From Ostreococcus lucimarinus (taxonomy: Eukaryota): 64,000 nucleotides of DNA. The notes under the pieces were generated by a model. That model was not told the origin of the DNA. It saw only the letters and a list, made by a program, of their open reading frames with translations, and searched no databases. The translations under genes and the position numbers were made by a program. The stretch is taken from the NCBI GenBank assembly GCA_000092065.1, contig CP000597.1. One strand, 5' to 3'. Below are positions 7,901-58,140 of the stretch, piece after piece. Each line of letters opens with the position of its first letter. Position 1 is the first letter of the stretch.

Positions 7901-10900
7901 CGACGCTCGCATCCGTGGGCGTGACCGGCGCGGCCACCGTCGGCACGACGCTCGGCGTGACTGGCGCTACGACGCTCACCGGCGACGTGACGATGAGCAA
8001 CGACTTGACCGTGAGCGGTGCGCTTACTGTGACATCTGATGCCGCTGTGAGTTTGACCTCTGCAAGTGGTTCGGACGTGAGCTTGACGAGCGCCGGTACG
8101 GGTGGCATCGTGTTGACGTCGACGGACGACATCACGCTCGATGCTGCCGATGATGTGACGATCGATGCCGCCGGTGCTTTGTCTTTGGAGCAGGGCGGGA
8201 CGAGTATTTTGAGCTGGACCGACACCGGCGCTGTGACTTTGAACTCCTTAGGCGGGCAGACCCTGAGCGTGTCGAGCCTCAGCTCGGCCGGGAACGCGGG
8301 CGCCGTGAGCGTGTCCGGCGGCACGACGACTGGGACGTCCTCGAACACCGGCGGCGACTTGACGCTGCAATCTGGCGGCGCGCCCGCTGGCAGCGTGAAC
8401 GGTGACGTTCTGGTGGACTCGGCCACTGGTCTAGGCACCGCCGGCTCGATCACGCTTCGCCAGGGGGTGGGCGGTGAGCGTGTTTCTGTGGACGCGAACG
8501 GCGCCGTGAGTCTGGACACGCACTCCGGGCAGGACCTGACGCTGAGCACGGGCGGTAGCGCGGCCGTGACTGTGGACTCGACCGGGCAGGTGGGCATCGG
8601 GACGACGACGCCGGGGAAGACGCTGGACGTCACCGGGACGGCGCGCGTGAGTGGCGCGACGACGCTGAGTAGCACGCTTGGCGTGACTGGCGCTACGACG
8701 CTCGCATCCGTGGGCGTGACCGGTGCGGCCACCGTCGGCGGGACTTTAGGTGTGACTGGCGCTACGACGCTCGGCGGGACTTTAGGTGTGACTGGCGCTA
8801 CGACGCTCGCATCCGTGGGCGTGACCGGCGCGGCCACCGTCGGCACGACGCTTGGCGTGACTGGCGCTACGACGCTCGGCGGGACTTTAGGTGTGACTGG
8901 CGCTACGACGCTCGCATCCGTGGGCGTGACCGGCGCGGCCACCGTCGGCACGACGCTCGGCGTGACTGGCGCTACGACGCTCGCATCTGTGGGCGTGACC
9001 GGTGCGGCCACCGTCGGCGGGACTTTAGGTGTGACTGGCGCTACGACGCTCACCGGCGACGTGACGATGAGCAACGACTTGACCGTGAGCGGTGCGCTTA
9101 CTGTGACATCTGATGCCGCTGTGAGTTTGACCTCTGCAAGTGGTTCGGACGTGAGCTTGACGAGCGCCGGTACGGGTGGCATCGTGTTGACGTCGACGGA
9201 CGACATCACGCTCGATGCTGCCGATGATGTGACGATCGATGCCGCCGGTGCTTTGTCTTTGGAGCAGGGCGGGACGAGTATTTTGAGCTGGACCGACACC
9301 GGCGCTGTGACTTTGAACTCCTTAGGCGGGCAGACCCTGAGCGTGTCGAGCCTCAGCTCGGCCGGGAACGCGGGCGCCGTGAGCGTGTCCGGCGGCACGA
9401 CGACTGGGACGTCCTCGAACACCGGCGGCGACTTGACGCTGCAATCTGGCGGCGCGCCCGCTGGCAGCGTGAACGGTGACGTTCTGGTGGACTCGGCCAC
9501 TGGTCTAGGCACCGCCGGCTCGATCACGCTTCGCCAGGGGGTGGGCGGTGAGCGTGTTTCTGTGGACGCGAACGGCGCCGTGAGTCTGGACACGCACTCC
9601 GGGCAGGACCTGACGCTGAGCACGGGCGGTAGCGCGGCCGTGACTGTGGACTCGACCGGGCAGGTGGGCATCGGGACGACGACGCCGGGGAAGACGCTGG
9701 ACGTCACCGGGACGGCGCGCGTGAGTGGCGCGACGACGCTGAGTAGCACGCTTGGCGTGACTGGCGCTACGACGCTCGCATCCGTGGGCGTGACCGGTGC
9801 GGCCACCGTCGGCGGGACTTTAGGTGTGACTGGCGCTACGACGCTCGGCGGGACTTTAGGTGTGACTGGCGCTACGACGCTCGCATCCGTGGGCGTGACC
9901 GGTGCGGCCACCGTCGGCGGGACTTTAGGTGTGACTGGCGCTACGACGCTCGGCACGACGCTCGGCGTGACTGGCGCTACGACGCTCGCATCCGTGGGCG
10001 TGACCGGCGCGGCCACCGTCGGCACGACGCTCGGCGTGACTGGCGCTACGACGCTCACCGGCGACGTGACGATGAGCAACGACTTGACCGTGAGCGGTGC
10101 GCTTACTGTGACATCTGATGCCGCTGTGAGTTTGACCTCTGCAAGTGGTTCGGACGTGAGCTTGACGAGCGCCGGTACGGGTGGCATCGTGTTGACGTCG
10201 ACGGACGACATCACGCTCGATGCTGCCGATGATGTGACGATCGATGCCGCCGGTGCTTTGTCTTTGGAGCAGGGCGGGACGAGTATTTTGAGCTGGACCG
10301 ACACCGGCGCTGTGACTTTGAACTCCTTAGGCGGGCAGACCCTGAGCGTGTCGAGCCTCAGCTCGGCCGGGAACGCGGGCGCCGTGAGCGTGTCCGGCGG
10401 CACGACGACTGGGACGTCCTCGAACACCGGCGGCGACTTGACGCTGCAATCTGGCGGCGCGCCCGCTGGCAGCGTGAACGGTGACGTTCTGGTGGACTCG
10501 GCCACTGGTCTAGGCACCGCCGGCTCGATCACGCTTCGCCAGGGGGTGGGCGGTGAGCGTGTTTCTGTGGACGCGAACGGCGCCGTGAGTCTGGACACGC
10601 ACTCCGGGCAGGACCTGACGCTGAGCACGGGCGGTAGCGCGGCCGTGACTGTGGACTCGACCGGGCAGGTGGGCATCGGGACGACGACGCCGGGGAAGAC
10701 GCTGGACGTCACCGGGACGGCGCGCGTGAGTGGCGCGACGACGCTGAGTAGCACGCTTGGCGTGACTGGCGCTACGACGCTCGGCGGGACTTTAGGTGTG
10801 ACTGGCGCTACGACGCTCGCATCCGTGGGCGTGACCGGCGCGGCCACCGTCGGCACGACGCTCGGCGTGACTGGCGCTACGACGCTCGCATCCGTGGGCG

Positions 10901-13900
10901 TGACCGGCGCGGCCACCGTCGGCACGACGCTCGGCGTGACTGGCGCTACGACGCTCACCGGCGACGTGACGATGAGCAACGACTTGACCGTGAGCGGTGC
11001 GCTTACTGTGACATCTGATGCCGCTGTGAGTTTGACCTCTGCAAGTGGTTCGGACGTGAGCTTGACGAGCGCCGGTACGGGTGGCATCGTGTTGACGTCG
11101 ACGGACGACATCACGCTCGATGCTGCCGATGATGTGACGATCGATGCCGCCGGTGCTTTGTCTTTGGAGCAGGGCGGGACGAGTATTTTGAGCTGGACCG
11201 ACACCGGCGCTGTGACTTTGAACTCCTTAGGCGGGCAGACCCTGAGCGTGTCGAGCCTCAGCTCGGCCGGGAACGCGGGCGCCGTGAGCGTGTCCGGCGG
11301 CACGACGACTGGGACGTCCTCGAACACCGGCGGCGACTTGACGCTGCAATCTGGCGGCGCGCCCGCTGGCAGCGTGAACGGTGACGTTCTGGTGGACTCG
11401 GCCACTGGTCTAGGCACCGCCGGCTCGATCACGCTTCGCCAGGGGGTGGGCGGTGAGCGTGTTTCTGTGGACGCGAACGGCGCCGTGAGTCTGGACACGC
11501 ACTCCGGGCAGGACCTGACGCTGAGCACGGGCGGTAGCGCGGCCGTGACTGTGGACTCGACCGGGCAGGTGGGCATCGGGACGACGACGCCGGGGAAGAC
11601 GCTGGACGTCACCGGGACGGCGCGCGTGAGTGGCGCGACGACGCTGAGTAGCACGCTTGGCGTGACTGGCGCTACGACGCTCGCATCCGTGGGCGTGACC
11701 GGTGCGGCCACCGTCGGCGGGACTTTAGGTGTGACTGGCGCTACGACGCTCGCATCCGTGGGCGTGACCGGCGCGGCCACCGTCGGCACGACGCTCGGCG
11801 TGACTGGCGCTACGACGCTCGCATCCGTGGGCGTGACCGGCGCGGCCACCGTCGGCACGACGCTTGGCGTGACTGGCGCTACGACGCTCGGCGGGACTTT
11901 AGGTGTGACTGGCGCTACGACGCTCGCATCCGTGGGCGTGACCGGCGCGGCCACCGTCGGCACGACGCTCGGCGTGACTGGCGCTACGACGCTCGCATCT
12001 GTGGGCGTGACCGGTGCGGCCACCGTCGGCGGGACTTTAGGTGTGACTGGCGCTACGACGCTCACCGGCGACGTGACGATGAGCAACGACTTGACCGTGA
12101 GCGGTGCGCTTACTGTGACATCTGATGCCGCTGTGAGTTTGACCTCTGCAAGTGGTTCGGACGTGAGCTTGACGAGCGCCGGTACGGGTGGCATCGTGTT
12201 GACGTCGACGGACGACATCACGCTCGATGCTGCCGATGATGTGACGATCGATGCCGCCGGTGCTTTGTCTTTGGAGCAGGGCGGGACGAGTATTTTGAGC
12301 TGGACCGACACCGGCGCTGTGACTTTGAACTCCTTAGGCGGGCAGACCCTGAGCGTGTCGAGCCTCAGCTCGGCCGGGAACGCGGGCGCCGTGAGCGTGT
12401 CCGGCGGCACGACGACTGGGACGTCCTCGAACACCGGCGGCGACTTGACGCTGCAATCTGGCGGCGCGCCCGCTGGCAGCGTGAACGGTGACGTTCTGGT
12501 GGACTCGGCCACTGGTCTAGGCACCGCCGGCTCGATCACGCTTCGCCAGGGGGTGGGCGGTGAGCGTGTTTCTGTGGACGCGAACGGCGCCGTGAGTCTG
12601 GACACGCACTCCGGGCAGGACCTGACGCTGAGCACGGGCGGTAGCGCGGCCGTGACTGTGGACTCGACCGGGCAGGTGGGCATCGGGACGACGACGCCGG
12701 GGAAGACGCTGGACGTCACCGGGACGGCGCGCGTGAGTGGCGCGACGACGCTGAGTAGCACGCTTGACGTGACTGGCGTTACGACGCTCGCATCCGTGGG
12801 CGTGACCGGTGCGGCCACCGTCGGCACGACGCTCGGCGTGACTGGCGCTACGACGCTCGCATCCGTGGGCGTGACCGGTGCGGCCACCGTCGGCGGGACT
12901 TTAGGTGTGACTGGCGCTACGACGCTCGGCACGACGCTCGGCGTGACTGGCGCTACGACGCTCGCATCCGTGGGCGTGACCGGCGCGGCCACCGTCGGCA
13001 CGACGCTCGGCGTGACTGGCGCTACGACGCTCACCGGCGACGTGAGCGTCGGGACTTCCTCGGCTTTGAGTTTTGGTTCTGCAACCCGGCAGATGATCAA
13101 CTTATATGGAACAAACAACGCCATCGGCGTGCAATCGTCCACGATGTATTTTCGTAGTGCTTATAACTTTGCCTTTTTTGAAGGCGGCGTGTACACCAAC
13201 ACAGAGCTCGATCCGGGTTCGGGTGGCACTTTGCGCATGATGATTCAGAAAACCACGGGCAACGTCGGTATCGGGACGGCGAGTCCAGATTATGAACTCG
13301 ACGTGGTAGGCGATATCAACTTTTCTGGGAATCTCTATCAGGGTGGTTCGCTGTTTGCCTCCCCCTGGACGGAGAGCAGCGGTAACGTGTATCGCAGTAG
13401 CGGTAACGTCGGCATCGGGCTGACGAATCCGACCTACAATCTGCACGTTGCTGGAACGGGGCGCGTTAGTACGACGCTATCGGTGGGTCAAGATTTAACC
13501 ATCGACACGGCTGGCGACTTGAACTTTGCGGCGACGCATCGTCAGATGATCAACCTCCGCGTCGGCGCCGAGGGTTTCGGGATCGGGACGCAGATGGACA
13601 CGACGTACTTTCGCTCTCCGGGCCACTTTGCGTTCTACGAAGACGGAACGCACAGCACCACTGACTTGGACGCGAACGGTGGCACCGCGCGTCTGGTGAT
13701 CAGGAGCGGCGGGAAGGTGGGCATCGGGCGGACGAATCCGAGCTATGATCTCGACGTGGTAGGCGATATCAACTTTTCTGGGAATCTCTATCAGGGCGGT
13801 TCTCTGTTCCCGTCCCCCTCCCCCTGGACGGAGAGCGGCAGTAACGTGTATCGTAGTAGCGGTAACGTCGGCATCGGGCTGACGAATCCGAGCTACAAAC

Positions 13901-15045
13901 TGGACGTCACTGGAACAGGACACTTCACGGGCGCGACGACGATCGATGACCAACTCACCGTTGGCGGTAACGTATTGATCCAAAGTACAACCAATAAGAT
14001 TTCGTTTGGCAGCACAGCGCGTCAGTTTATTGAAACGAATAACGGTGGAATCGGAACGCAGTCAAAGACGCTGTATTTTCGTTCACAGGATTTTTTCGGC
14101 TTTTACAAAAATGGCGGTCACAACAGCGCCGATCTGAACCCAGGCGGAAGCGGGACTCTCCTTGTCGCCATTCGCGGTGACATCTCTGGTGCTCGAATGG
14201 CGATTGGATCTTCAGACACAGATAGTGGCTACGCTTTTAAGGTCACCGGGTCGGCGCAAGCGACCGCTGCGCTCGACGTAGGCACGACGCTTAATGTGGC
14301 GTCGTACGCGACAATTCGCGGCGACTTGCGCCTCAATACCGGTACTCAGCAAATAAATTTTGGTACCCAGCACCGTCAGGTTGCTGCGCTCGCGACTGGC
14401 GGCATCGGAACGCAGTCGAACACTGTATACTTTCGTTCACAGGACTTGTTTGGCTTTTATAAAGGTGGCGGCCATAGCTCTACCGCTCTTGATCCAGGCG
14501 GAAGCGGGACTCTCCTTGTCACCATTCGCGGTGACGTCTCTGGTCCTCGATTAGGAGTCGGAGTCACGAATCCCTCCTACGCTCTCGAAGTCAATGGAGC
14601 GGCGCACGTGTCTGGCGCACTGAGCAAGGGAAGTGGCTCTTTCAAGATCGATCATCCACTTCCTGAAATGAAAGACACGCATAATTTGTATCACTCCTTC
14701 ATCGAGGGACCACGGGCGGATCTCATCTACAGAGGCAAGGTTCGTTTGCAGAACGGTAGGGCGATGATAGACATCGATGCCGCATCAAACATGACGACAG
14801 GGACATTTGAAGCACTCAATCGCGACGTGCAGTCGTTCACGTCAAATGAAAGCGACTGGGACCCCGTCCGAGGTTCTGTCGTGGGCAACGTCCTCACCAT
14901 TGAGTGTCAAAACCCCACTTCGACGGCACTCATCAGCTGGCTTGTCATCGGTGAGCGTCACGATCAGCACATGTACGACACAGATTGGACCGATGAAAAC
15001 GGTCGTGTCGTTCCGGAACAATTGAAAAAGAGTGCGACGACGTGA
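4951..15045 (+). CDS. Giant (~3364 aa) repeat-rich secreted or surface protein. Architecture: PPC-like N-terminal domain, seven tandem ~300-aa units with nested 23-aa G/T/V/A sub-repeats, phage-tail-fibre-like GIGT repeats, and a C-terminal intramolecular chaperone auto-processing (peptidase S74-like) domain. Exact start uncertain: the first 100 codons are R/D low complexity and a hydrophobic signal-like segment LGTAAAAAATAALAAT lies downstream.
   Basis: Single open frame of 10 kb. The PPC-like segment is KYYKVNV...TTSNGDANLYVSRSAQP...GYYYVSVYG. The repeat unit is SGQDLTLSTGGSAAVTVDSTGQVGIGTTTPGKTLDVTGTARVSGATTLSSTLGVTGATTLASVGVTGAATVGGTLGVTG... The C-terminal part has four copies of (x)GIGTxxPxYxLDVxG / YFRSxxxFxFY motifs. 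The terminal domain GSGSFKIDHPLPEMKDTHNLYHSFIEGPRADLIYRGKVRLQNG matches the ICA / peptidase S74 signature (IDHPL...L.HSF.E.P..D.IYRG). Confidence 0.75.
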   Translation: MRLDDGDDARRRDARAVRARATRTPTRAATTRGDVVDAAAADDDIDDDAVARPDATRRRRRDDDATTTTRDDETTRAREGASGRRRARERGRATRRRRRLGTAAAAAATAALAATVERVGVDASTALTKGVARNGFVSSSGYKYYKVNVACVEAAQPLTLELTTSNGDANLYVSRSAQPTTSSYEQRSVNVGNALDSVTITSPVNGYYYVSVYGALSSTYKLRALTTMFTGKHPCTGFRITDSDVSSVGSGSGNQFILQEALTASAAAGFTADVSVDGDVILGDAYTDSVTAKGELKLGVTDSTYYAITRQSPSAPSSNPGGALSIVGANATYQGGSVKILGGTGGSGAGGDVVIEAGSASGGNGGDLKLRGGTSNSGTGGDVVIDAGDSTTQASSYEGIIHIGPTSASFVRVGESSNKQVQTDIFGDLTVHGNLLTTNDVVYANSYTSYVQVSTSQDGMFHQEVRAPKITGLDAEDITGTPTSTLTLDAGMRGSQQHVVIAPSEATAVYIGSSTSTIPVSIRQGANAGDVRVHADGSGALSVTSAAGQDLTLASGDDVVVTTAASKTLALKQDSTSILSWDAAGAVTVNSVSGQDLTLSTGGSAAVTVDSTGQVGIGTTTPGKTLDVTGTARVSGATTLSSTLDVTGATTLASVGVTGAATVGGTLGVTGATTLASVGVTGAATVGGTLGVTGATTLASVGVTGAATVGTTLGVTGATTLTGDVTMSNDLTVSGALTVTSDAAVSLTSASGSDVSLTSAGTGGIVLTSTDDITLDAADDVTIDAAGALSLEQGGTSILSWTDTGAVTLNSLGGQTLSVSSLSSAGNAGAVSVSGGTTTGTSSNTGGDLTLQSGGAPAGSVNGDVLVDSATGLGTAGSITLRQGVGGERVSVDANGAVSLDTHSGQDLTLSTGGSAAVTVDSTGQVGIGTTTPGKTLDVTGTARVSGATTLSSTLGVTGATTLASVGVTGAATVGGTLGVTGATTLASVGVTGAATVGTTLGVTGATTLTGDVTMSNDLTVSGALTVTSDAAVSLTSASGSDVSLTSAGTGGIVLTSTDDITLDAADDVTIDAAGALSLEQGGTSILSWTDTGAVTLNSLGGQTLSVSSLSSAGNAGAVSVSGGTTTGTSSNTGGDLTLQSGGAPAGSVNGDVLVDSATGLGTAGSITLRQGVGGERVSVDANGAVSLDTHSGQDLTLSTGGSAAVTVDSTGQVGIGTTTPGKTLDVTGTARVSGATTLSSTLGVTGATTLASVGVTGAATVGGTLGVTGATTLGGTLGVTGATTLASVGVTGAATVGTTLGVTGATTLGGTLGVTGATTLASVGVTGAATVGTTLGVTGATTLASVGVTGAATVGGTLGVTGATTLTGDVTMSNDLTVSGALTVTSDAAVSLTSASGSDVSLTSAGTGGIVLTSTDDITLDAADDVTIDAAGALSLEQGGTSILSWTDTGAVTLNSLGGQTLSVSSLSSAGNAGAVSVSGGTTTGTSSNTGGDLTLQSGGAPAGSVNGDVLVDSATGLGTAGSITLRQGVGGERVSVDANGAVSLDTHSGQDLTLSTGGSAAVTVDSTGQVGIGTTTPGKTLDVTGTARVSGATTLSSTLGVTGATTLASVGVTGAATVGGTLGVTGATTLGGTLGVTGATTLASVGVTGAATVGGTLGVTGATTLGTTLGVTGATTLASVGVTGAATVGTTLGVTGATTLTGDVTMSNDLTVSGALTVTSDAAVSLTSASGSDVSLTSAGTGGIVLTSTDDITLDAADDVTIDAAGALSLEQGGTSILSWTDTGAVTLNSLGGQTLSVSSLSSAGNAGAVSVSGGTTTGTSSNTGGDLTLQSGGAPAGSVNGDVLVDSATGLGTAGSITLRQGVGGERVSVDANGAVSLDTHSGQDLTLSTGGSAAVTVDSTGQVGIGTTTPGKTLDVTGTARVSGATTLSSTLGVTGATTLGGTLGVTGATTLASVGVTGAATVGTTLGVTGATTLASVGVTGAATVGTTLGVTGATTLTGDVTMSNDLTVSGALTVTSDAAVSLTSASGSDVSLTSAGTGGIVLTSTDDITLDAADDVTIDAAGALSLEQGGTSILSWTDTGAVTLNSLGGQTLSVSSLSSAGNAGAVSVSGGTTTGTSSNTGGDLTLQSGGAPAGSVNGDVLVDSATGLGTAGSITLRQGVGGERVSVDANGAVSLDTHSGQDLTLSTGGSAAVTVDSTGQVGIGTTTPGKTLDVTGTARVSGATTLSSTLGVTGATTLASVGVTGAATVGGTLGVTGATTLASVGVTGAATVGTTLGVTGATTLASVGVTGAATVGTTLGVTGATTLGGTLGVTGATTLASVGVTGAATVGTTLGVTGATTLASVGVTGAATVGGTLGVTGATTLTGDVTMSNDLTVSGALTVTSDAAVSLTSASGSDVSLTSAGTGGIVLTSTDDITLDAADDVTIDAAGALSLEQGGTSILSWTDTGAVTLNSLGGQTLSVSSLSSAGNAGAVSVSGGTTTGTSSNTGGDLTLQSGGAPAGSVNGDVLVDSATGLGTAGSITLRQGVGGERVSVDANGAVSLDTHSGQDLTLSTGGSAAVTVDSTGQVGIGTTTPGKTLDVTGTARVSGATTLSSTLDVTGVTTLASVGVTGAATVGTTLGVTGATTLASVGVTGAATVGGTLGVTGATTLGTTLGVTGATTLASVGVTGAATVGTTLGVTGATTLTGDVSVGTSSALSFGSATRQMINLYGTNNAIGVQSSTMYFRSAYNFAFFEGGVYTNTELDPGSGGTLRMMIQKTTGNVGIGTASPDYELDVVGDINFSGNLYQGGSLFASPWTESSGNVYRSSGNVGIGLTNPTYNLHVAGTGRVSTTLSVGQDLTIDTAGDLNFAATHRQMINLRVGAEGFGIGTQMDTTYFRSPGHFAFYEDGTHSTTDLDANGGTARLVIRSGGKVGIGRTNPSYDLDVVGDINFSGNLYQGGSLFPSPSPWTESGSNVYRSSGNVGIGLTNPSYKLDVTGTGHFTGATTIDDQLTVGGNVLIQSTTNKISFGSTARQFIETNNGGIGTQSKTLYFRSQDFFGFYKNGGHNSADLNPGGSGTLLVAIRGDISGARMAIGSSDTDSGYAFKVTGSAQATAALDVGTTLNVASYATIRGDLRLNTGTQQINFGTQHRQVAALATGGIGTQSNTVYFRSQDLFGFYKGGGHSSTALDPGGSGTLLVTIRGDVSGPRLGVGVTNPSYALEVNGAAHVSGALSKGSGSFKIDHPLPEMKDTHNLYHSFIEGPRADLIYRGKVRLQNGRAMIDIDAASNMTTGTFEALNRDVQSFTSNESDWDPVRGSVVGNVLTIECQNPTSTALISWLVIGERHDQHMYDTDWTDENGRVVPEQLKKSATT
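6727..13050 (+). repeat. In-frame coding tandem array of seven near-identical units (933, 864, 1074, 1005, 900 and 1107 bp spacing between unit starts, plus a last unit). Each unit contains a variable number of a 69-bp (23-aa) sub-repeat and 33/36-bp partial variants.
   Basis: Unit starts (codon CAG of SGQDL) at 6733, 7666, 8530, 9604, 10609, 11509 and 12616. All spacings are divisible by 3 and differ by multiples of 69, 36 or 33 bp. Units appear essentially identical at nucleotide level by eye. Confidence 0.9.
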
Positions 15046-15163: not shown

Positions 15164-18100
15164 CTATAGTCTAAAAGATAGCTTTGCGAACTCTCCGTCG
15201 GACACCGCGTCGCTCGTCTGCCCCCCCGTCGCGCCGTCATCGCTCGTTTCGCTTCCGAGCAACGAAGACGCCTTTCGCCGGCGCTCAGGCGAATCGTCCG
15301 CGTCCCGAAAATCGTAGAGATAATCGCTATGCCTTGCATAATGCACCCGCGTCGCTTCTTCTCCTGAGGCATTAAATCTATACGACTCGGGAGAAAATGA
15401 TGACTGAGCGAATCTGTCCTCATCTGACGCGCTCTCTTCGGCGTCGTACGATTCACCCATGGAATACGCCAGTTCGCTCGGTTCACGTTCACTCAGTCCA
15501 TCATTCGGTGTATTCAGCCCTGGTTGGCGTCCACTAGATGGGTCTTTCATCTCAAACGCGTAATGATCGTCATCCGAGTCAGCATCCGTGGAAGATGCGT
15601 AAGCACGCCGCGACTCAAACCTGTTCTCACCAAAAAATGCGGCGCCGCGTAGAGGTTCCGGTGGTTCCAGTTCTAGTTCGGGTTCCGGTTCCGGTCGCAC
15701 TTCCCGTTCTGCTGTCACATCCGTCTCTGGTGCGAGATCTAAGATGGACTGGTTCCGTCCGGGCACGACGTTACCCTGCTCTCCATTCGTCTCGAATGCG
15801 GCGAGCGTCGCGACGTGATCGCGAGCGACACTCCCGCCTCGGTGACCCTTTACGACGGCACGTTCTTCCTGAGCGCTGTGGGTGAATCTCTCAATCACGC
15901 TACGCGCTTTGGTTGATGCGTCAAATAACGCGCCACCAGGTTCGCGCGACCGCACGACTTTCTTTTTAATTCTGATTGCGAGTCGTCGAAGCTGAATCGT
16001 GTGCTTGATAATTTCCACCACCTCCTCGGTGTCGTACAGTCCCTCGTCGTCCGCTGATACTGAGAATCTTTCGAGAATGATCGCCACAAATAAATTTCCG
16101 AGCAAAAATATAGAGATGATGACAAATGATATAAAGTATGGGACCGCAGCAGCGTTATACGAGCAGTCGATGCTGGATTCCAACATGAACGGTGCTTCTG
16201 TGCGTAAGCACGCCTCTGTTTGGTACACCTCGCCGAACGTGCCAACCCAGCCACCCGTGTACACCCCGATGAGAGATGAGCAAGCTGTGGTGAATCGTTG
16301 AAAGTTCGAGTACTTCGATAGCACGCCGCCTTCGAAAGGGCCGGTTTCATCGCCGAAAAGTGAAACACCCATGATGGCGTACGAAAAGATCGCGAGGGAC
16401 GATAGCGCGGCGACGTTTCCGACACCCGGAAGACTCATTATGAACGTGTTGAAGAGCGACCGCAGCCCAGAATGTGCCTTTACCAGTTTCAGTAATCTCA
16501 ACAATCTCACCAATTGTAGGTAATTCATGACACCGCCTGCGTTTAGACTTTGTCCGATCGCCTGTACGATGGAAACTACGACGACGAAGGCGTCCAGCCA
16601 ATTCCAATAATTCCTAAAGTAACGCGTCCGACCTTGCGCCATGAGCAAAAGCATCATTTCCAAAGAGTACACCGCAGTGAACGCGATAGACATGCAGAAG
16701 TGAGCATATTCTGCTGAACTGCTCATATTCGCCGTTTGTGTCAAGAGCTCGATTAAATTTGCGCACACTACCACGAGGATGAAGTACGCAAACTTTTTCG
16801 GCTTTGAGATATGATGCGCAAGTAGACGAGCTCGCGACCAAAGGCTTTTGCCTGGCGGCGGTACGATTCTGCGCCATGCCTCTGAATCTTGCGTGCTTGC
16901 ACGTAGTATAGCCTGCTGCCAGCGCCGCTGCGCTGGGGTGACAAACGTAAGCTTGTCTTGCGAAGCCATCTTGTTAAAGTTGTCCACGAGCGCCGTGACT
17001 AATAAATTCAACCAAAAGAAATTCCCGATGGCGACCGTCAATACAAAATAAAGAGCGGCGGCTTGGTTGTTATCTGTTTTCAAGCCGGTCCCGACGCCTG
17101 TGGTATCCATGGCGACCCACATGATTTCTTGCCAGTCATCGCCGGCGTGCAGTAGAAACGTCGATAAAAGTGCAGCGCCAAAGTTATCAAAGTTGAACTT
17201 TGCATTTCGCCACTTTCCTCCCGCTGCCTCGCACGTTGCTTGTGTAGTGTAGCTACTCGCATCATTCACCACTCGACACGACCAAAACTTACCCATAAAG
17301 AGCTCCATACCAAGAAGTGCGAAAATTGACATGGAAACTAAACCGATGAAGCACACGTAACTTACGGCTGGGATCGCGGAAAGTACAGTGTTAACGACAA
17401 GGCGGAGACCAGGGAAACGACGAATGGATCGAAGCGGGCGCATGATTCGCAAAAGTCGAAGTGCTCGCACGCTTCCGCTGCCATCGTCTGCCGCGGTGAG
17501 CGAAATGATTGATGTAAAGACGACGACGCCATCGAGAATGTTGAAGGAATTCTTCAGATACGCAGTCGGTCGCTCGTACAACCCGTAGGCGAATAACTTT
17601 AATACCATCTCTGCGCCAAATAAAGTCGTAAAAGTAATATCAACCGCGGTGTACACTTTTGCAGTATGAGATCCCGCCACTGGCCAAGTCTTTGTTTCTG
17701 TCGCGAGTAACACGCTACCAGCGATGATCATGCATAGAATGGCGTTCTCAAAGAGGTTGTGTGAAACAATTTTGTGCACCAAGTATTTGTATCTCTCGAC
17801 GGGAATCGTATCGTCGTACAGCGGTATAAAGTCGCCATCTTTTGTGACGATCACGCCCGGTATCTCTGACGACTGTTTCTTCACGCGTGAGGAGATGGAT
17901 CTCGTGATTGTCGCCGCCCAAGGACCGTGCGCGTCAAAGACGACATGCTCGTCTTCCTTACTCTTATCCTCGATGCTTAAACGATTGTTTTGCGCCGCAA
18001 ATCTTTTCGTCATACTGTGCCTAATAGAACTTTTGATAGAGCTAGTCACCCCGAACGCTTTGTCTTGATAGTCTTGATACTCCACAAACTTTGGCGTCAG

Positions 18101-20740
18101 GCGAAGTTGAGCCTCCTTAAGAGCGTGCTCGCTTATGGTCAGTACTTGCGCCGGTGTCTTCAACTTGAATCCGATCGAATCTAGAAATATCCTGCACGCA
18201 GCAACATCTTCGACTGTTTGCTTTCTCAAGCGGTCCTTCTTGACCTGCGCGAGCTTGCCACCGTGATCCGGAGGCTTTAATGCTGCGAGTACGGATGAAA
18301 TCGCCGTAGGCGTACTGCCATCGGCCGTCTTTAAACTCTTTTTCGCTTGCGATTGTATTGCTTGTTCGGCACATTCTTGTTTCCTGGCCGCATCCAAAAG
18401 ATTAAACTTGAAGCTCGTATCACCTCTGTCTTTTATCGAGTCGCCGCGCTTGCTGCGCGCATGTTTTCGCAACGTACTCCTGAATGCGTTCGCCGCGAAT
18501 GTCATGTTTTGCAGTACCCGTTTCGCTTTCCGATTCGGATCTAGCACGATATCACCCGCACGTTCGATGGCAGACCTCAGTCTGCCATCTTCAAGCTCGT
18601 CTTGCGCGCGTTGCTCTTCCTCGATGTCGACGAGCGAACACGAGTCGATTAAAATCCCGAGCACGAGCGACAAGATGACGGTGGATAAAAAAATCCACGC
18701 GATGGTGTACAGAACGACGACGTCGTTACCGGACGCTACCATAGTATTCCACGCGACAACAAACGAGTCCTCTCCCGTGGCGACAACAAACAGCGTCAAC
18801 GCGCTGCGCAAAAAGTTCCTAAACGTCAAGCGCTCGTCGTCGAGCGCTCCTAACCCGGTGAAGAGTTGAAATCCGTAAATGGCAAATATGACTTGAAATA
18901 ATAGCCAAACGATCAAAAACGGCCACATGTCTTGGAAACCGAGATACGCGCTTGAAATGATCTTCCTAAATTCTCTGTTGTTTCTGATGACGCGAAACGT
19001 TCGCAGCGCCCTTCCTATTCGCAAGAGACGAATGAATGACGCGCTCACGCCTTGACTCGTCACCGCCGTACTGATGACACCGGTAAACACGATCAACCCA
19101 TCGACAACGTTTTGCTTTGAGCTCCAGTATCCTCTAAAGCCGTATCCGATGTGTTTAATCGCCATTTCTACAGCAAAACATCCGAGGAAAACATATTCTA
19201 AAATTTCAGAAGCCTTGACGAATCCCGACGACGCCGCGTGATGCTGCGACATCATCAAAATTGTATTAAATATAATAACCACCGTGATGCTGGCATCAAA
19301 ACGTCGGTCTTCAGCGATTTTCCAGCACATTTGACGCGTTGCATCAGACACAAAGAGACGAAAAAAACGCTCACCATTCTTGTGAAAGTTGTTTCCGCGT
19401 CCATCGCTTTCGCCGCGACTGAGCGCCGTCTCGTCGTCCAAGCTTTCTAGTACTTTCTCTGTCTTCGCCTGGCTCGAGTCTTCGGGCGCTTCGTCTTCGT
19501 CGCGAATACCCATTTGCGTCAACGTCGCGCAAATGACGGATGTAAAGAGTTCCATCATAAAAAACCCACCCATCAGAACGACGACGATGAACCAAAGAAA
19601 CGCCGCGGGATAGCCAACCGCGTACGCCGTGGGATTGAGCAACTCATTCCAACCGTCGATGGTCATTCCATTTAACGCGACAATTGAACTTCTCCCAGCG
19701 TTCGCAAAGCTCAGAAATCCGTCATACGGCTCGATGCCCGAATCACAGCACCACTCCGTCGCGCTTCTGTTTGTGTTCCATTCCTTGTAGTTGCACGTGC
19801 TGTCGTACTCATTTGGGTACGTTCCTTCGGCGCCCAACGCGAGAGCGCCCATCCACGCGCCGACCAAGTTCGCACACGTCTCACTCCCCGTCCCCACGGG
19901 AAACACGTAGCTCGCGTTCGTCGCTTGATCCGGCGGCGTCCCGTACCACCGTCCCGTCATCCGACCGCCGAACATCGTCACGCCGCTCACCGCGAAGAAT
20001 ATTAAAAACCACAGCAAAAACAACAGCACGTCCCCCAACAACGGCAGCGCTCGAGCGATCGTTTTCATCGCCAACCTCGCGCTGCGGTACTTCGCGAACA
20101 ACTTGAACGCGTACAACGACCGCAACAGTCGCACCGTCACCACCTGCGAGCCTCCGATCGGCATCAACATCAACGACAGCACGACGAGCGTGAAATCGAA
20201 CCGATGCCAATTCGTCGTCAAGTACGCCCCCTCGCCCAGCGCGAATCCCAGCGCCACGCTCTTCACCAGCGCCTCCGCCGCGAACACCCCCGCGACGACG
20301 TAATTCGCCGCCGTCGCCGCCGTCGCCTCCGCCGCGCCATCCCTCGCCGGTTTCACCACCGCGACGATCGCGCTCGAGCCCACGACGCACATCGCGACGA
20401 CGGCGTGAAACGCGCGCGCCTCGATCGCGCGCGCGCAGAACCGTCGCGTCGCGCCGTCGCGCCGGAACATCAACAGCGACGCGTCGTTCGCGCGCCATCG
20501 CTCGAGCGTCCTCGCGACGCGTCGCGTCACCGCGCCTCCCGCGTCGTCGTCGCCGTCGCGCGCGTCGTCGTCGTCGTCGTCGCGCGCGCGCGCGCCGTCG
20601 CGCGCGTCGCGCGCGTCGCCGTCGTCGTCGTCGTCGTCGCTCGTCGAGCTCGCGCGCGCGCTGTCGTCCACCTTCCGCGCGCGCGCCTCGCGCGCGTCGC
20701 GCGCGCGCGACACGAACGCGTCCGTGAACTGAAAGTTCAT
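15164..20740 (-). CDS. Four-domain voltage-gated cation channel (CaV/NaV/NALCN superfamily), 1858 aa, single exon.
   Basis: Four homologous 6TM domains, each with an R/K-every-third S4: VTVRLLRSLYAFKLFAKYR; IRLLRIGRALRTFRVIRNNR; ALRLLRIMRPLRSIRRFPGLR; LVRLLRLLKLVKAHSGLR. Pore loops are MTIDGWNEL, ATGEDSF, AGDDWQEIMW and YTGGWVGT. Acidic disordered N-terminus; IQ-like segment TIQLRRLAIRIKKK after domain IV. Confidence 0.85.
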   Translation of the reverse strand: MNFQFTDAFVSRARDAREARARKVDDSARASSTSDDDDDDGDARDARDGARARDDDDDDARDGDDDAGGAVTRRVARTLERWRANDASLLMFRRDGATRRFCARAIEARAFHAVVAMCVVGSSAIVAVVKPARDGAAEATAATAANYVVAGVFAAEALVKSVALGFALGEGAYLTTNWHRFDFTLVVLSLMLMPIGGSQVVTVRLLRSLYAFKLFAKYRSARLAMKTIARALPLLGDVLLFLLWFLIFFAVSGVTMFGGRMTGRWYGTPPDQATNASYVFPVGTGSETCANLVGAWMGALALGAEGTYPNEYDSTCNYKEWNTNRSATEWCCDSGIEPYDGFLSFANAGRSSIVALNGMTIDGWNELLNPTAYAVGYPAAFLWFIVVVLMGGFFMMELFTSVICATLTQMGIRDEDEAPEDSSQAKTEKVLESLDDETALSRGESDGRGNNFHKNGERFFRLFVSDATRQMCWKIAEDRRFDASITVVIIFNTILMMSQHHAASSGFVKASEILEYVFLGCFAVEMAIKHIGYGFRGYWSSKQNVVDGLIVFTGVISTAVTSQGVSASFIRLLRIGRALRTFRVIRNNREFRKIISSAYLGFQDMWPFLIVWLLFQVIFAIYGFQLFTGLGALDDERLTFRNFLRSALTLFVVATGEDSFVVAWNTMVASGNDVVVLYTIAWIFLSTVILSLVLGILIDSCSLVDIEEEQRAQDELEDGRLRSAIERAGDIVLDPNRKAKRVLQNMTFAANAFRSTLRKHARSKRGDSIKDRGDTSFKFNLLDAARKQECAEQAIQSQAKKSLKTADGSTPTAISSVLAALKPPDHGGKLAQVKKDRLRKQTVEDVAACRIFLDSIGFKLKTPAQVLTISEHALKEAQLRLTPKFVEYQDYQDKAFGVTSSIKSSIRHSMTKRFAAQNNRLSIEDKSKEDEHVVFDAHGPWAATITRSISSRVKKQSSEIPGVIVTKDGDFIPLYDDTIPVERYKYLVHKIVSHNLFENAILCMIIAGSVLLATETKTWPVAGSHTAKVYTAVDITFTTLFGAEMVLKLFAYGLYERPTAYLKNSFNILDGVVVFTSIISLTAADDGSGSVRALRLLRIMRPLRSIRRFPGLRLVVNTVLSAIPAVSYVCFIGLVSMSIFALLGMELFMGKFWSCRVVNDASSYTTQATCEAAGGKWRNAKFNFDNFGAALLSTFLLHAGDDWQEIMWVAMDTTGVGTGLKTDNNQAAALYFVLTVAIGNFFWLNLLVTALVDNFNKMASQDKLTFVTPAQRRWQQAILRASTQDSEAWRRIVPPPGKSLWSRARLLAHHISKPKKFAYFILVVVCANLIELLTQTANMSSSAEYAHFCMSIAFTAVYSLEMMLLLMAQGRTRYFRNYWNWLDAFVVVVSIVQAIGQSLNAGGVMNYLQLVRLLRLLKLVKAHSGLRSLFNTFIMSLPGVGNVAALSSLAIFSYAIMGVSLFGDETGPFEGGVLSKYSNFQRFTTACSSLIGVYTGGWVGTFGEVYQTEACLRTEAPFMLESSIDCSYNAAAVPYFISFVIISIFLLGNLFVAIILERFSVSADDEGLYDTEEVVEIIKHTIQLRRLAIRIKKKVVRSREPGGALFDASTKARSVIERFTHSAQEERAVVKGHRGGSVARDHVATLAAFETNGEQGNVVPGRNQSILDLAPETDVTAEREVRPEPEPELELEPPEPLRGAAFFGENRFESRRAYASSTDADSDDDHYAFEMKDPSSGRQPGLNTPNDGLSEREPSELAYSMGESYDAEESASDEDRFAQSSFSPESYRFNASGEEATRVHYARHSDYLYDFRDADDSPERRRKASSLLGSETSDDGATGGQTSDAVSDGEFAKLSFRL

Positions 20741-20920
20741 CGAATCCCGGCGCGTCGCGCGCCGCGCGTCGCGCGCGCGCGCCGCTGTGCCGACGAATCG
20801 AATCGAAACCGCATTCGCATTCGCGAATCGCGCGCGTCAGAGCGCCGCGCGACACGCCGCTCGACGCGACGCGCCGCGTCGCGACGCGCGACGCCGCGCT
20901 CGACGCGCGCGCGCGCGCGC

Positions 20921-20958
20921 GACGCGCTGAAAACGACGCGACGCGCTGAAAACGGCGC
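20921..20958 (+). repeat. Two tandem copies of a 19-bp motif (gacgcgctgaaaacgRcgc) in the shared channel/calmodulin promoter, about 20 bp upstream of the calmodulin-like ATG.
   Basis: Read directly: gacgcgctgaaaacgacgc followed by gacgcgctgaaaacggcgc. Confidence 0.6.
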
Positions 20959-20976
20959 GTTCGATCGCGCGCGGGC

Positions 20977-21468
20977 ATGTCGCGGAAACACCTCACGGAC
21001 GAGGAGCTCGCGAGCGCGTGGCCGTACCTCACGCGCGCGCAGGTGCAGGAGTTCAAGGAGGCGTTCGATATATTCGACGTCGACGGCGGCGGGACGATCA
21101 CGGCGGAGGAGCTCGGGGAGGTGATGAAGTCGCTCGGGCAGAAACCGACGAGGGCGCAGCTGGAGGCGATGGTGCGGGAGATCGACGCGGACGGGGACGG
21201 GGCGATCGATTTTCCAGAGTTTTTGACGATGATGCTGCGGAAGATGAACGAGGGTGATCCGGAGAGGGAGCTCAGGGACGTGTTCACGGTGTTCGATAAG
21301 GATCAGAGCGGGACGATTAGCGCGGATGAGCTGAAGAGCGTGATGAAGGTCATCGGGGAGAAACTGACGGAGCAAGAGATCGAGGACGCGATTCGGTTGG
21401 CGGATACCACGGGAGACGGAGAGGTTGATTACGATGAGTTCATCGCGTTCGTGCTGTCGTCGAATTAA
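20977..21468 (+). CDS. Calmodulin-like EF-hand protein: four EF hands plus a ~25-aa N-terminal extension.
   Basis: [66 protein letters not shown]...[53 protein letters not shown] is nearly collinear with canonical calmodulin. Confidence 0.85.
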
Positions 21469-21633: not shown

Positions 21634-22038
21634 CTACGGCGCGTCACCACCACCTCGTCGCCGTCGGTCCTCGCGAAACGCCTCGACGCTCCGCTCGTAC
21701 TCGCGAGGAACGACGTACAAGAACAGGAACCACCACGCCAGGACGGCGGCGCCGACGATGGTGGTGGATAGCGTTCCGAACCAGCCGGCGACGCGCTCGT
21801 CGAGGTGGAGCACGTTCACTGGCGTCGCGGTGGCGAGCACGCCAGTGGCCACGATTGAGTACGGCTGGCACCACGCGGGTTTCGTCTTCCACATATCTGT
21901 CGGCAGATCGTCGTCGCCCTGGGACGACGCGCGAGCAGGGATGGAAACGATACGACGGTGCGCGCGCGTTCCCGGCGCACGCGCGCGGCAACGAAGCCCC
22001 GCTCGCGTGGGCGCCGGTGGGCGCGCGACGCCGCGCAT
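21634..22038 (-). CDS. Small hypothetical membrane protein (two predicted TM helices); frame and start uncertain.
   Basis: Hydrophobic segments IVATGVLATATPVNVL and TTIVGAAVLAWWFLFLYVV inside an ORF otherwise R-rich at its 5' end. Confidence 0.25.
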   Translation of the reverse strand: MRGVARPPAPTRAGLRCRARAPGTRAHRRIVSIPARASSQGDDDLPTDMWKTKPAWCQPYSIVATGVLATATPVNVLHLDERVAGWFGTLSTTIVGAAVLAWWFLFLYVVPREYERSVEAFREDRRRRGGGDAP

Positions 22039-22101: not shown

Positions 22102-23676
22102 TCAATTCGAGCGTCGTTGCTGCTTGCTTCTATTTTCCTGCGGGTCGTTGGCTCCTTTGTCCCCTTTATCCCCATCGCGGTGATGACGCTCGCCGCCGAA
22201 CCGCCGCTCGCCGTCGCCGCGCCCTCCTCTGCCCGCGCGCCCGCCGTCGCCGCGCCCGCCCCTGCCGCCGCGCCCGCCGTCGCCGCGCCCGCCGCCTTGG
22301 CGAAACTTACTCGGCTGGCTCAGTTTGTAATTACCATCCCTCCACATATCGCTTCGATGAATTTCGCCGATGCCTTCGAATATGATTTCTCGAAGCTCGA
22401 CGAAGTTTCGCTCGACGAGCGGTAGCGGATACTTTTCGGCGCCTTCGAGCGCATTCTCTAGCACGAAAGCTGCAGCACCGGAGGCGATCGCGAGAGCTTC
22501 TTCGGCCGAAAACTTGAAACAAATATTCCGCACGGTGTCCGCGATGTGCGGCGGTAAACTGCTCGGCTCAAAACGCGCGGCGCGAACCAACTGACCGGGC
22601 GGCAACGGCGGCGGCGCTTGGTCTCGCTCTCGCTTATGACCCGTAATTTTTGCATCAGCATTCGCCGCCGCGACGGCGGCGTACGTCGTCACCGGTGGCG
22701 GTGGTGGCGCTCCCTTGGTCGTTTGCAGCGACGGCGGCGGCGCCGCGCCCGCTTCCCAGTCCAAAGGCGTGTCGCCGGCGTTGCGCACGACGTCTTCAAA
22801 CGGCGCCCGCAGCGCGGCGTAATCTGGGGTTTGCCCATACTCCAACGTCGCGATCGCGCGTGCGAAAGTTTCTATGGCTGTCGGGCACCCGTGTTTCGGG
22901 CACAACAACGCCGGATTCTTCACGCATTTCTTCTTTTCGCGCTCGACGTTTTGCTTGCTCATCTTTTCTTCGCCCGCCTTCCAGGGCAAAACACCCTCGT
23001 GTGCTTCGACCAAGACGTACAAAGCGCTAAACAAGTCGTCACGCGCGCTCTGTTCCTTGTTTTCGTGCGCGTACACGCTCGCGTACGTCGTCGTCCCTCG
23101 AAACGTCGCGTCGTCCCGCTCCGGCAACACGTTTCCGTCGTCGTCGGTGAACTTGCGCGCCAAACCGAAATCGATCAAATACAACCGCTTCATCCCCTCT
23201 TTACCGTTCCCCACGCACACGTTCCCTGGTTTAATATCTCTGTGCACGTATCCCGCGCCGTGCATGCTCTCCAGCGCGTCCAGCATCGCGATCGCGATCG
23301 CGCACGTCGTCCTCGGCCCGAACCGTCCGCCCCGCGCGCGACTTCGCAAATCCGCCAAATTCTCCCCCACCAGTTCCATCGCCAGGAACGGCTTCCCCTC
23401 GTGCGACGATTCCAGCAGTAACTCCGCGAAGTGTTCCTTCCCCGCCATCGCTCGCATCACCCGCGCCTCTCGCGCGCTCGTCCTGTGTTCGCTCTCCACC
23501 TTGACCGCGACGCGCGCGCCGTCCCGCGTCGCGTCGTTCGCCGCGTACACCTCCGCGAACTGTCCTCGTCCCAGCTTCGGCGCCGACGCCACCGTGAACC
23601 GTCCGTCCGCGCCCAATCGCGCGCCCGGTTTCAGCAGATTGTGCGGCTGCGCGAACTGCGTCGTCGATTTGCTCAT
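22102..23676 (-). CDS. Ser/Thr protein kinase of the casein-kinase-1 superfamily (CK1/TTBK-like) with a C-terminal RGG-rich low-complexity tail.
   Basis: Kinase subdomains: LGRGQFAEVY (Gly loop), VAVK, HRDIKPGNVCVG (catalytic loop), LIDFGLARKF (DFG), TTYASV..., then a C-terminal GGRGDGGRGGRGGRGDGGRAGRGG tract. Confidence 0.75.
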   Translation of the reverse strand: MSKSTTQFAQPHNLLKPGARLGADGRFTVASAPKLGRGQFAEVYAANDATRDGARVAVKVESEHRTSAREARVMRAMAGKEHFAELLLESSHEGKPFLAMELVGENLADLRSRARGGRFGPRTTCAIAIAMLDALESMHGAGYVHRDIKPGNVCVGNGKEGMKRLYLIDFGLARKFTDDDGNVLPERDDATFRGTTTYASVYAHENKEQSARDDLFSALYVLVEAHEGVLPWKAGEEKMSKQNVEREKKKCVKNPALLCPKHGCPTAIETFARAIATLEYGQTPDYAALRAPFEDVVRNAGDTPLDWEAGAAPPPSLQTTKGAPPPPPVTTYAAVAAANADAKITGHKRERDQAPPPLPPGQLVRAARFEPSSLPPHIADTVRNICFKFSAEEALAIASGAAAFVLENALEGAEKYPLPLVERNFVELREIIFEGIGEIHRSDMWRDGNYKLSQPSKFRQGGGRGDGGRGGRGGRGDGGRAGRGGRGDGERRFGGERHHRDGDKGDKGANDPQENRSKQQRRSN

Positions 23677-57704: not shown

Positions 57705-58140
57705 CGCGACGCCGCTTTTTAGCCCGGGTCTCGCGTTTCGTGATGGCGTTACGGCGCGCGCGAATACGAGGGCGTCGACCGGCGTCGCGCGGGACGTCGC
57801 GATGGGTTTATGTCGCGCGCGAGACGTCACGCTCGATGGCGTTACGTCGAGCGCGAATACGAGGGCGTCGACCGGCGTCGCGCGGGACGTCGCGATGGGT
57901 TTATGTCGCGCGCGAGACGTCACGCTCGATGGCGTCGCGACGAGCGCGAATACGACGGCGCGCGTGTGCGGGGAGTGTTCGGACACACGGAGAGCGTGAC
58001 GGTCGTGTGGGGAGTTTATATCGCGCGCGAGACGTCACGCTCGATGGCGTCACGTCGAGCGCGAATACGACGGCGCGCGTGGGCGGGGAGTGTTCGGACA
58101 CACGGAGAGCGTGACGGTCGCGTGGGGAAACAGTGCGGGG
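57705..58140. repeat. Minisatellite: about 4.5 tandem copies of a ~93-bp unit (two alternating variants) in the FTHFS/Sec1-like intergenic region.
   Basis: gatgggtttatgtcgcgcgcgagacgtcacgctcgatggcgttacgtcgagcgcgaatacgagggcgtcgaccggcgtcgcgcgggacgtcgc recurs at 57801 and 57894. Variant copies (…gaatacgacggcgcgcgtgtgcggggagtgttcggacacacggagagcgtgacggtcg…) occur at ~57930-58140. Confidence 0.8.

Follow-up and report, generated by a model that had tools for sequence, protein, structure and literature searches.

We analysed a 64,000-nucleotide stretch of contig CP000597.1 from the picoalga Ostreococcus lucimarinus (GenBank assembly GCA_000092065.1), hereafter the window, in which the gene for a four-domain voltage-gated channel and the gene for a calmodulin-like (CML) protein stand head-to-head. 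The two genes and the region between them are as follows.

15164..20740, minus strand: four-domain channel gene, an intronless ATG open reading frame (ORF) of 1858 amino acids (aa)
20977..21468, plus strand: CML gene, an intronless ORF of 163 aa
20741..20976, no strand: divergent intergenic spacer, 236 bp, 76% G+C

The sequence and the ORF list confirmed the layout given in a preliminary description of this DNA, namely a channel gene on the minus strand (ATG at 20740) and a CML gene on the plus strand (ATG at 20977), diverging from a CG-rich spacer of 236 bp. Each ORF opens at the first start codon after an in-frame upstream stop, and both starts are backed by relatives, that of the channel by the orthologue P0002 (MNFxFTD) and that of the CML gene by the MSRKHL present in all CML orthologues. 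The identities claimed for the two genes also held in Pfam, which placed PF00520 (Ion_trans) in four stretches of the channel (E 5e-171), as in the four-domain Cav/Nav superfamily, and EF-hand_1 in four stretches of the CML protein, giving it four EF loops in two lobes. Being head-to-head with less than 1 kb between them, the genes form a bidirectional pair, and the 236 bp must house two core promoters plus two 5' untranslated regions.

The channel is 'Ostrel3' (XP_001422214.1), which was included in the four-domain channel survey of Pozdnyakov et al (2018; PMC5824947), and its S4 strings match those in the supplement to that survey. Among structures in the PDB its best relatives were T-type Cav3 channels, followed by Cav1 and Nav, with similarity over the full length. 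Nine orthologues of the channel were collected, at 53-64% identity.

A conserved basic helix directly follows domain IV of the channel

The segment of principal interest lies immediately behind S6 of domain IV (IVS6).

15944..16027, minus strand: post-S6 basic amphipathic helix, residues 1572-1599 (EEVVEIIKHTIQLRRLAIRIKKKVVRSR), directly following IVS6
15959..16000, minus strand: 'IQ-like' string TIQLRRLAIRIKKK, residues 1581-1594, as translated

In a nine-species alignment, EGLYDxxEVVEIIKHTIQLRRLAxxIK was invariant or nearly so, and the tail diverged thereafter save for a few short motifs; mean identity among the nine orthologues was 0.76 over residues 1559-1599, compared with 0.77 in domain IV and 0.39 in the distal tail. 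T-I-Q-L-R-x-L-A was invariant within Ostreococcus, three Micromonas-like sequences (P0011, P0012 and P0298) read TVQLRKIA, and the motif T[IV]QLR[RK][LI]A was retained as TVQLRKIAKLIK in homologues at 41% overall identity. Residues 1581-1598 carry a net charge of +7 with a hydrophobic moment of 0.54; no other cytoplasmic stretch of the channel is as good a basic amphipathic candidate, and anchor residues occur both at 1-5-10 spacing (I1578/I1582/L1587) and at 1-8-14 spacing (I1582/I1589/V1595). Basic amphipathic helices with either spacing are classic calmodulin (CaM) targets, and the segment falls into that class by its sequence.

Beyond the closest relatives, a word-indexed homologue search with a fragment comprising domain IV and the tail recovered 6 fragments only, and a profile search over 1.84 billion representatives recovered 2269 channels at E<=1e-30; of the 150 top matches, only about 15 aligned past S6 into the helix. 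A MAFFT alignment of 21 channel tails was free of gaps from S6 through the helix, with conservation of EG[LVM], of the hydrophobic face and of the basic positions, and outside the Ostreococcus and Micromonas-like group the Q of 'IQ' gave way to V, I, L or K. What the 'IQ-like' string represents is an older post-S6 helix of one clade of protist four-domain channels, in the form that it takes in Ostreococcus and Micromonas.

The preliminary description had called the string an IQ-like CaM-binding motif, located at the position where CaV and NaV channels bind CaM. The string is present and is conserved like the transmembrane core, but Pfam IQ (PF00612), Ca_chan_IQ (PF08763) and GPHH (PF16905) gave no match in the whole channel or in the isolated tail at E<=10, and the Q varies in the clade. 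When set against the IQ consensus [FILV]Qxxx[RK]Gxxx[RK]xx[FILVWY], IQLRRLAIRIKKKV fits at positions 1, 2, 11 and 14 and has L instead of R/K at position 6 and A at position 7. The positional part of the claim did not hold. In the 'calmodulation' of Cav1/Cav2 and Nav1 channels, CaM acts through a C-terminal EF-hand-like domain, a pre-IQ and an IQ, the last lying about 140 residues downstream of IVS6 behind the EF-hand-like domain. The segment in Ostrel3 starts only about 24 residues past the ERF that closes IVS6, no EF-hand-like C-terminal domain or pre-IQ was found ahead of it, and Ostrel3 aligns with solved Cav/Nav channels only as far as ERFSVSADDE. The published survey likewise lists pre-IQ and IQ of Ostrel3 as 'Not identified' (PMC5824947). 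What Ostrel3 does share with these channels is the four-domain build, a conserved basic helical segment in the tail after domain IV, and an I-Q followed by basic residues, and a protein of the CaM type is a plausible ligand. On these sequence marks, the 'IQ-like' string is not a Cav/Nav IQ domain, and the post-S6 helix is a reasonable candidate for CaM or CML docking.

A better positional analogue is offered by helix A of Kv7 and the CaM-binding domain of SK. Kv7 (KCNQ helix A/B) and SK channels hold CaM constitutively on the proximal C-terminus, on a helix almost directly after S6, and movements of the sensor can be passed to the gate via this near-S6 helix. By this analogy, docking in Ostrel3 would be more like CaM on Kv7 helix A or SK than like CaM on the distal Cav/Nav IQ. 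The likeness is one of position and stops short of architecture: Kv7 and SK are tetrameric K+ channels built from single-domain subunits, with four sensors to each channel, whereas the Ostrel3 helix occurs in domain IV only. Neither the post-S6 helix nor the neighbouring CML protein is described in Pozdnyakov et al (2018), although Ostrel3 itself was included there.

The channel-CML junction is confined to collinear Ostreococcus blocks

Channel orthologues at 53-64% identity were traced to their contigs for an analysis of synteny. The adjacency was kept in 6/6 Ostreococcus lineages recovered, O. lucimarinus included, the others being L001, L002/3, L004 (O. mediterraneus), L005-7 and L021 (O. 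tauri type). An EF-hand gene of 162-163 aa stands head-to-head with the channel in L001, L002/3, L004 and L005-7, across a spacer of about 190 bp in L001, L004 and L005-7 and of about 760 bp, as called, in L002/3; the arrangement is the same in L021, where the channel N-terminus lies at the contig end. The pair is embedded in a longer collinear order that runs pentapeptide protein, pseudouridine synthase, channel, CML, DUF6737, kinase, FG-GAP protein and CCDC93, and in sister Ostreococcus species the FG-GAP gene is followed by a KH/WW gene that was not identified in the window. The conserved neighbours on the CML side and a large ORF on the channel side are the following.

21634-22038, minus strand: DUF6737 gene (Pfam), conserved CML neighbour
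22102-23676, minus strand: tau-tubulin-kinase-like gene (Pfam), conserved CML neighbour
4951-15045, plus strand: giant intronless ORF of 3364 aa, with an N-terminal PPC domain and long tandem-repeat arrays

Outside Ostreococcus the junction was not found. In Micromonas (L028-L030, 7130-8489) the CML gene still adjoins the DUF6737, kinase and FG-GAP genes, in inverted orientation, and no channel lies beside it. In a flagellate green alga (L024-L026) it lies beside a dynein heavy chain gene and an ABC1 kinase gene or other genes, and in Klebsormidium between an XRN exonuclease gene and an O-fucosyltransferase gene, in neither case with an adjoining channel. Seen from the other partner, the channel homologue P0011 (41% identity, on a high-GC Micromonas-like contig) has an ABC transporter upstream and no CML gene, and channels of the P0013/P0129 type stand head-to-head with a glutamine amidotransferase gene instead. 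Conservation in relatives, by which the preliminary description had proposed to judge the pair, is complete across the six Ostreococcus lineages but absent from Micromonas, L024-L026, Klebsormidium and the P0011 and P0013/P0129 loci.

Because the same neighbours recur in Ostreococcus and at the channel-less Micromonas locus, the position of the CML gene beside DUF6737 and the kinase is, on gene order, ancestral. The channel-CML junction is specific to Ostreococcus, possibly to Bathycoccaceae. Within the genus it is kept only in collinear blocks, and its retention there is indistinguishable from background collinearity; conservation of the adjacency does not exceed that of the surrounding synteny.

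Two details of these comparisons are recorded in their own right. The Micromonas rearrangement is a small inversion whose location coincides, at least roughly, with that of the differing channel junction. In L024-L026, the CML orthologue (78% identical) lies tail-to-tail with the dynein heavy chain gene, which is of the axonemal type, about 60 bp from its end.

The 3364-aa gene sits between the pseudouridine synthase gene and the channel gene, and it is a lineage-specific insertion or expansion, since these two flanking genes are directly adjacent in three other Ostreococcus lineages. PPC denotes a pre-peptidase C-terminal domain, and the repeats of the ORF have units of 69 and 105 bp (23/35 aa). 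The protein is possibly surface or adhesin-like.

A short divergent spacer is ordinary in this genome

On a crude gene map, the roughly 26 genes of the window include 8 head-to-head pairs, whose spacers measure 77-1560 bp; another of these spacers was also exactly 236 bp long. In O. tauri, 2288 bidirectional pairs with 3884 transcripts make up about half of the genome (PMC4035068). Like the bidirectional pairs of compact genomes in general, the channel and CML genes diverge across less than 1 kb and must have promoter space in common, and their spacer shows no feature that sets it apart from the others around it in the window. In so gene-dense a genome, a bidirectional intergenic region of 236 bp is ordinary.

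Two repeats lie within the spacer.

20921..20958, plus strand: 19-bp tandem duplication found by Tandem Repeats Finder (TRF), ending 18 bp 5' of the CML ATG
20794..20808, no strand: (CGAAT)n microsatellite, polymorphic in copy number

TRF reported a period of 19, 2.2 copies and 95% matches for the duplication, whose copy 1 spans 20921-20939 (gacgcgctgaaaacgAcgc) and copy 2 20940-20958 (gacgcgctgaaaacgGcgc). It had been described as a perfect 19-bp duplication next to the CML ATG; it is indeed there, but the copies match at 18/19 positions. Both copies were fixed in 10/10 conspecific environmental contigs, which are too alike to inform on conserved promoter elements. The spacers of four other Ostreococcus species lacked the repeat, and its core GCGCTGAAAACG occurred in the window only at its two copies, near-matches being at chance level. 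No k-mer of at least 7 nucleotides (with at least 3 A/T bases) was found in at least 4/5 Ostreococcus spacers. Across the window, more than 20 short tandem-repeat loci with a TRF score of at least 60 occupy the ends of genes and the CG-rich spacers. Since such arrays abound, the core does not recur and the sister spacers share no k-mer of at least 7 nucleotides with this one, the duplication is, as judged from this comparison of sequences, a species-specific product of replication slippage; it is a genuine slippage product rather than a random match. The repeat was also considered as a conserved cis-element, an idea rejected on the same spacer comparison.

The microsatellite varies within the species: 7/10 environmental O. 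lucimarinus-type contigs (L011-L020; 2 or 4 full units) have two additional CGAAT units, which shifts the length of the promoter region by 10 bp, and spacer length among these contigs ranges from 234 to 247 bp. A scan for sigma-70 promoters and terminators, which is not relevant to a eukaryote, gave no match.

The CML protein belongs to an old green-algal family

The CML protein is identical to XP_001422109.1 (A4S9Q9), a 'predicted protein' of O. lucimarinus CCE9901. Canonical calmodulin has about 149 aa, is at least about 90% identical across eukaryotes and carries no terminal extension. The CML protein, although its best solved relative is calmodulin (E ~1e-53, 58% identity), departs from this pattern with its 163 aa, its 58% identity to vertebrate CaM and its 13 extra N-terminal residues. 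All methionines of the CaM N-lobe are kept, and M124, M144 and M145 of the C-lobe are changed to A, F and V. Throughout the family, EF1 has Gly at loop position 5 (the Z position). The AlphaFold2 (AF2) model of the protein (predicted local distance difference test, pLDDT, 70) was CaM-like, with low confidence in the N-terminal extension, and its best Foldseek matches were CaM in compact, peptide-bound states.

20977..21027, plus strand: N-terminal extension of the CML protein, residues 1-17, not in canonical calmodulin

That this extension departs from canonical calmodulin had been stated in the preliminary description, and it proved to be a conserved family feature. In 17 family members, from Ostreococcus, Micromonas, Pycnococcus, Pyramimonas, Mesostigma and Klebsormidium, residues L11, W15, P16 and R20 were invariant (17/17), and the motif ahead of EF1, which we call WPYLTR, reads L..(x)WP[YF]L[TR]R.QV; most members have 161-168 aa. 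Identity to the O. lucimarinus protein was 87-90% among Ostreococcus species, 75-79% in Micromonas, 69% in Pycnococcus, 62% in Pyramimonas, 78% in Mesostigma and 72% in Klebsormidium. Within the genus the CML protein is much more constrained than the channel (87-90% vs 53-64%). Its shared motif identifies it as a member of an old green-algal WPYLTR family. Its age, its high conservation and its presence in lineages with no adjoining channel make it easier to see in the protein a sensor whose targets are older or broader, and the channel clade may be among them. A literature search with the gene accessions and with WPYLTR/WPFLTR returned no result, and we found no paper describing the gene pair or the CML family.

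CaBP1 and CaBP4 are calmodulin-like proteins with N-terminal extensions and are dedicated regulators of Cav1. The algal protein resembles them as a four-EF-hand relative of CaM with an extra N-terminal segment and a degenerate EF1, and by analogy it could be specialised in channel regulation as they are. It differs from them in having no myristoylation signal (it begins MS-, not MG-) and in that its closest solved relative, by both sequence and fold, is calmodulin itself.

A probable proximal docking helix beside an ordinary gene pair

We read the locus as an ordinary, genus-limited head-to-head pair in which the channel bears a conserved post-S6 helix that probably docks a CaM-type sensor, and we put the probability of this reading at roughly 0.55. 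The adjacency arose in Ostreococcus and is inherited there as part of a collinear gene block, and the pairing is most likely a neutral outcome of gene order rather than a selected, co-regulated module. The most likely function of the helix would be regulatory: placed proximally in the C-terminus, it would dock a Ca2+ sensor of the calmodulin type, with canonical calmodulin and the neighbouring CML protein both candidate ligands, and the docked sensor would give Ca2+ feedback on gating.

Several observations weigh against this reading. O. lucimarinus has 2 CaM and 2 CML genes among 7796 genes (PMC6471108) and 3 four-domain channels (PMC5824947); the chance of a channel immediately neighbouring a CaM or CML gene is about 3x2x4/7796 = 0.003, a rough and post hoc figure, and the pairing is therefore not likely to be an accident a priori. 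The only change of gene order nearby, the 3364-aa insert, falls at the channel 3' end and leaves the head-to-head junction intact. Finally, an AF2 run on channel residues 1255-1640 (mean pLDDT 60, falling below about 50 in the tail), which was used for secondary structure alone, gave the helix at 1572-1598 a pLDDT of only about 40-52, so that its helicity and exposure rest mainly on the primary structure.

The competing explanation that survives best, although we consider it unlikely, is that the post-S6 helix is a structural or gating element and not a CaM target, with the CML protein acting elsewhere and the adjacency coincidental. The helix could then prolong S6, be left over from helix I of the EF-hand-like Cav/Nav C-terminal domain (CTD), form a 'neck' like that of BacNav channels or bind lipid as a polybasic segment. 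The module is continuous with S6, without gaps, and its first half (EGLYDxxEVVEIIKH) would sit at the place of the first Nav/Cav CTD helix, which we take to be ENFSVATEESxEPLSEDDFEMFYEVWEKFD. There is also weak similarity to bacterial NavMs pore-plus-C-terminal constructs across S6 and the tail (E 5e-6, no single stretch being significant), and the nearly invariant III-IV linker is a possible intramolecular partner; that the Q of 'IQ' is not kept in the clade fits this explanation as well. Against this explanation stand the physical character of the segment, whose net charge of +7 and 1-5-10 / 1-8-14 spacing are of the classic CaM target type, and the precedent of Kv7 and SK channels, which bind CaM directly after S6. 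Motifs homologous to CaM-binding sites are, moreover, widespread among protist four-domain channels (PMC5824947).

Less probable still, and in our view improbable as it stands, is the proposal nearest to the preliminary description, in which a channel and its Ca2+ sensor are co-regulated from one bidirectional promoter. Here the WPYLTR CML protein would be a dedicated auxiliary Ca2+-sensing subunit of the algal channel clade, docking on the post-S6 helix, which would differ from the Cav/Nav IQ domain in both site and architecture, and in Ostreococcus the pair would be co-expressed from the shared 236-bp promoter. The low chance estimate and the retention of the pair in all six Ostreococcus lineages speak for it, as do the high conservation and CaM-target physico-chemistry of the helix and, on the part of the CML protein, the target-binding methionines of the CaM N-lobe and four plausible EF loops. 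Both partners also occur beyond Ostreococcus, the CML gene in Micromonas and a helix-bearing channel homologue on the Micromonas-like high-GC contig, and the partnership could therefore predate the adjacency. The pair is nevertheless separate at the Micromonas, L024-L026, Klebsormidium, P0011 and P0013 loci, and within Ostreococcus the whole neighbourhood is collinear, which deprives its conservation of specificity. No spacer motif is conserved between species, and the gap between CML and channel in G+C content at third codon positions (GC3), detailed below, hints at different levels of expression. The conservation of the CML protein, at 73-78% to streptophyte algae, is far above that of the channel and fits a sensor with older partners.

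A last candidate, that the low G+C of the channel gene marks foreign or outlier-chromosome DNA, was rejected: the orthologues in all five species share the low GC3 within neighbourhoods of normal GC.

If the post-S6 helix does bind a CaM-type sensor, it would constitute a second, proximal route to Ca2+ feedback on four-domain channels, in a lineage without the EF-hand/IQ apparatus of animals, and would bear on the evolution of Cav/Nav calmodulation; it would also name a concrete regulator for the channels of a non-motile picoalga that has no flagellum. The new element is that the putative CaM regulation of a four-domain channel is proximal, not distal. If the CML protein turned out to be what binds there, Ostreococcus would provide a channel-sensor pair that is very small and genetically tractable, and if it were a dedicated subunit, the smallest free-living eukaryote would have in this pair a minimal excitability module complete in itself. 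The analysis yields two defined objects, the channel peptide 1572-1599 and the WPYLTR calmodulin-like family.

Further features of the channel and the window

The S4 segments of the channel have R/K at every third position (SFIRLLRIGRALRTFRVIR, RALRLLRIMRPLRSIRR and LQLVRLLRLLKLVKA, also listed for Ostrel3); those of domains II-IV are rich in arginine and lysine, and S4 of domain I is poorer in charges. In HMMER alignments the pore ring read D (TIDGW), E (TGEDS), D (GDDW) and G or a gap (TGGW), domain IV having no acidic residue. This is an unusual ring, distinct from the canonical EEEE, EEDD and DEKA.

16937..16948, minus strand: TFVT motif, residues 1265-1268, resembling the Nav-type inactivation gate, in the III-IV linker

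The survey lists the inactivation gate of Ostrel3 as 'TFVT' (PMC5824947). The linker that contains it (FNKMASQDKLTFVTPAQRRWQQAILRAS; residues 1255-1298, window 16846-16978) is nearly invariant across the nine species and also includes QRRWQQA. The Nav-type TFVT gate motif co-occurs with the unusual D/E/D/G pore ring.

The II-III linker contains a further conserved stretch that is basic and amphipathic (window 18518-18541, residues 734-741 onward; AKRVLQNMTFAANAF), with R741, Q744, F748 and A749 invariant, and could be another protein-docking site. The distal C-terminal tail (window 15164-15940) diverges but keeps GENRF, SDDDxYxF, NTPxxxxSER, DYLxxFRDD, SSLLGS and SDDGATG, islands resembling short linear motifs of the kind that serve trafficking or the binding of partners. 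The terminus reads [LF]S[FL]RL in most orthologues, the final RL being invariant. At the other end (window 20500-20740, residues 1-80), the coding sequence contains CG-rich trinucleotide and 66-bp repeats, and the N-terminal acidic tail, of low complexity in D/E/R, varies in length and sequence between species.

The GC3 of the channel was the lowest of its neighbourhood in 5/5 Ostreococcus species (0.58-0.70 vs about 0.64-0.85 for the neighbours), which may reflect low expression or weak codon selection. The CML gene, at 0.67-0.85, had the highest GC3 of the neighbourhood in two species and tied for the highest in a third; it exceeded the channel in 5/5 species, by a wide gap in three (0.85 vs 0.63 in O. 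lucimarinus). Elsewhere in the window, positions 46071-48692 hold another gene of low GC3, which encodes 873 aa and has no Pfam match. Two large near-perfect tandem repeats, one of 93 bp x2.4 and one of 115 bp x2.0 (95% identical), occupy positions 57742-58128, in intergenic DNA upstream of the gene at 58340-60796.

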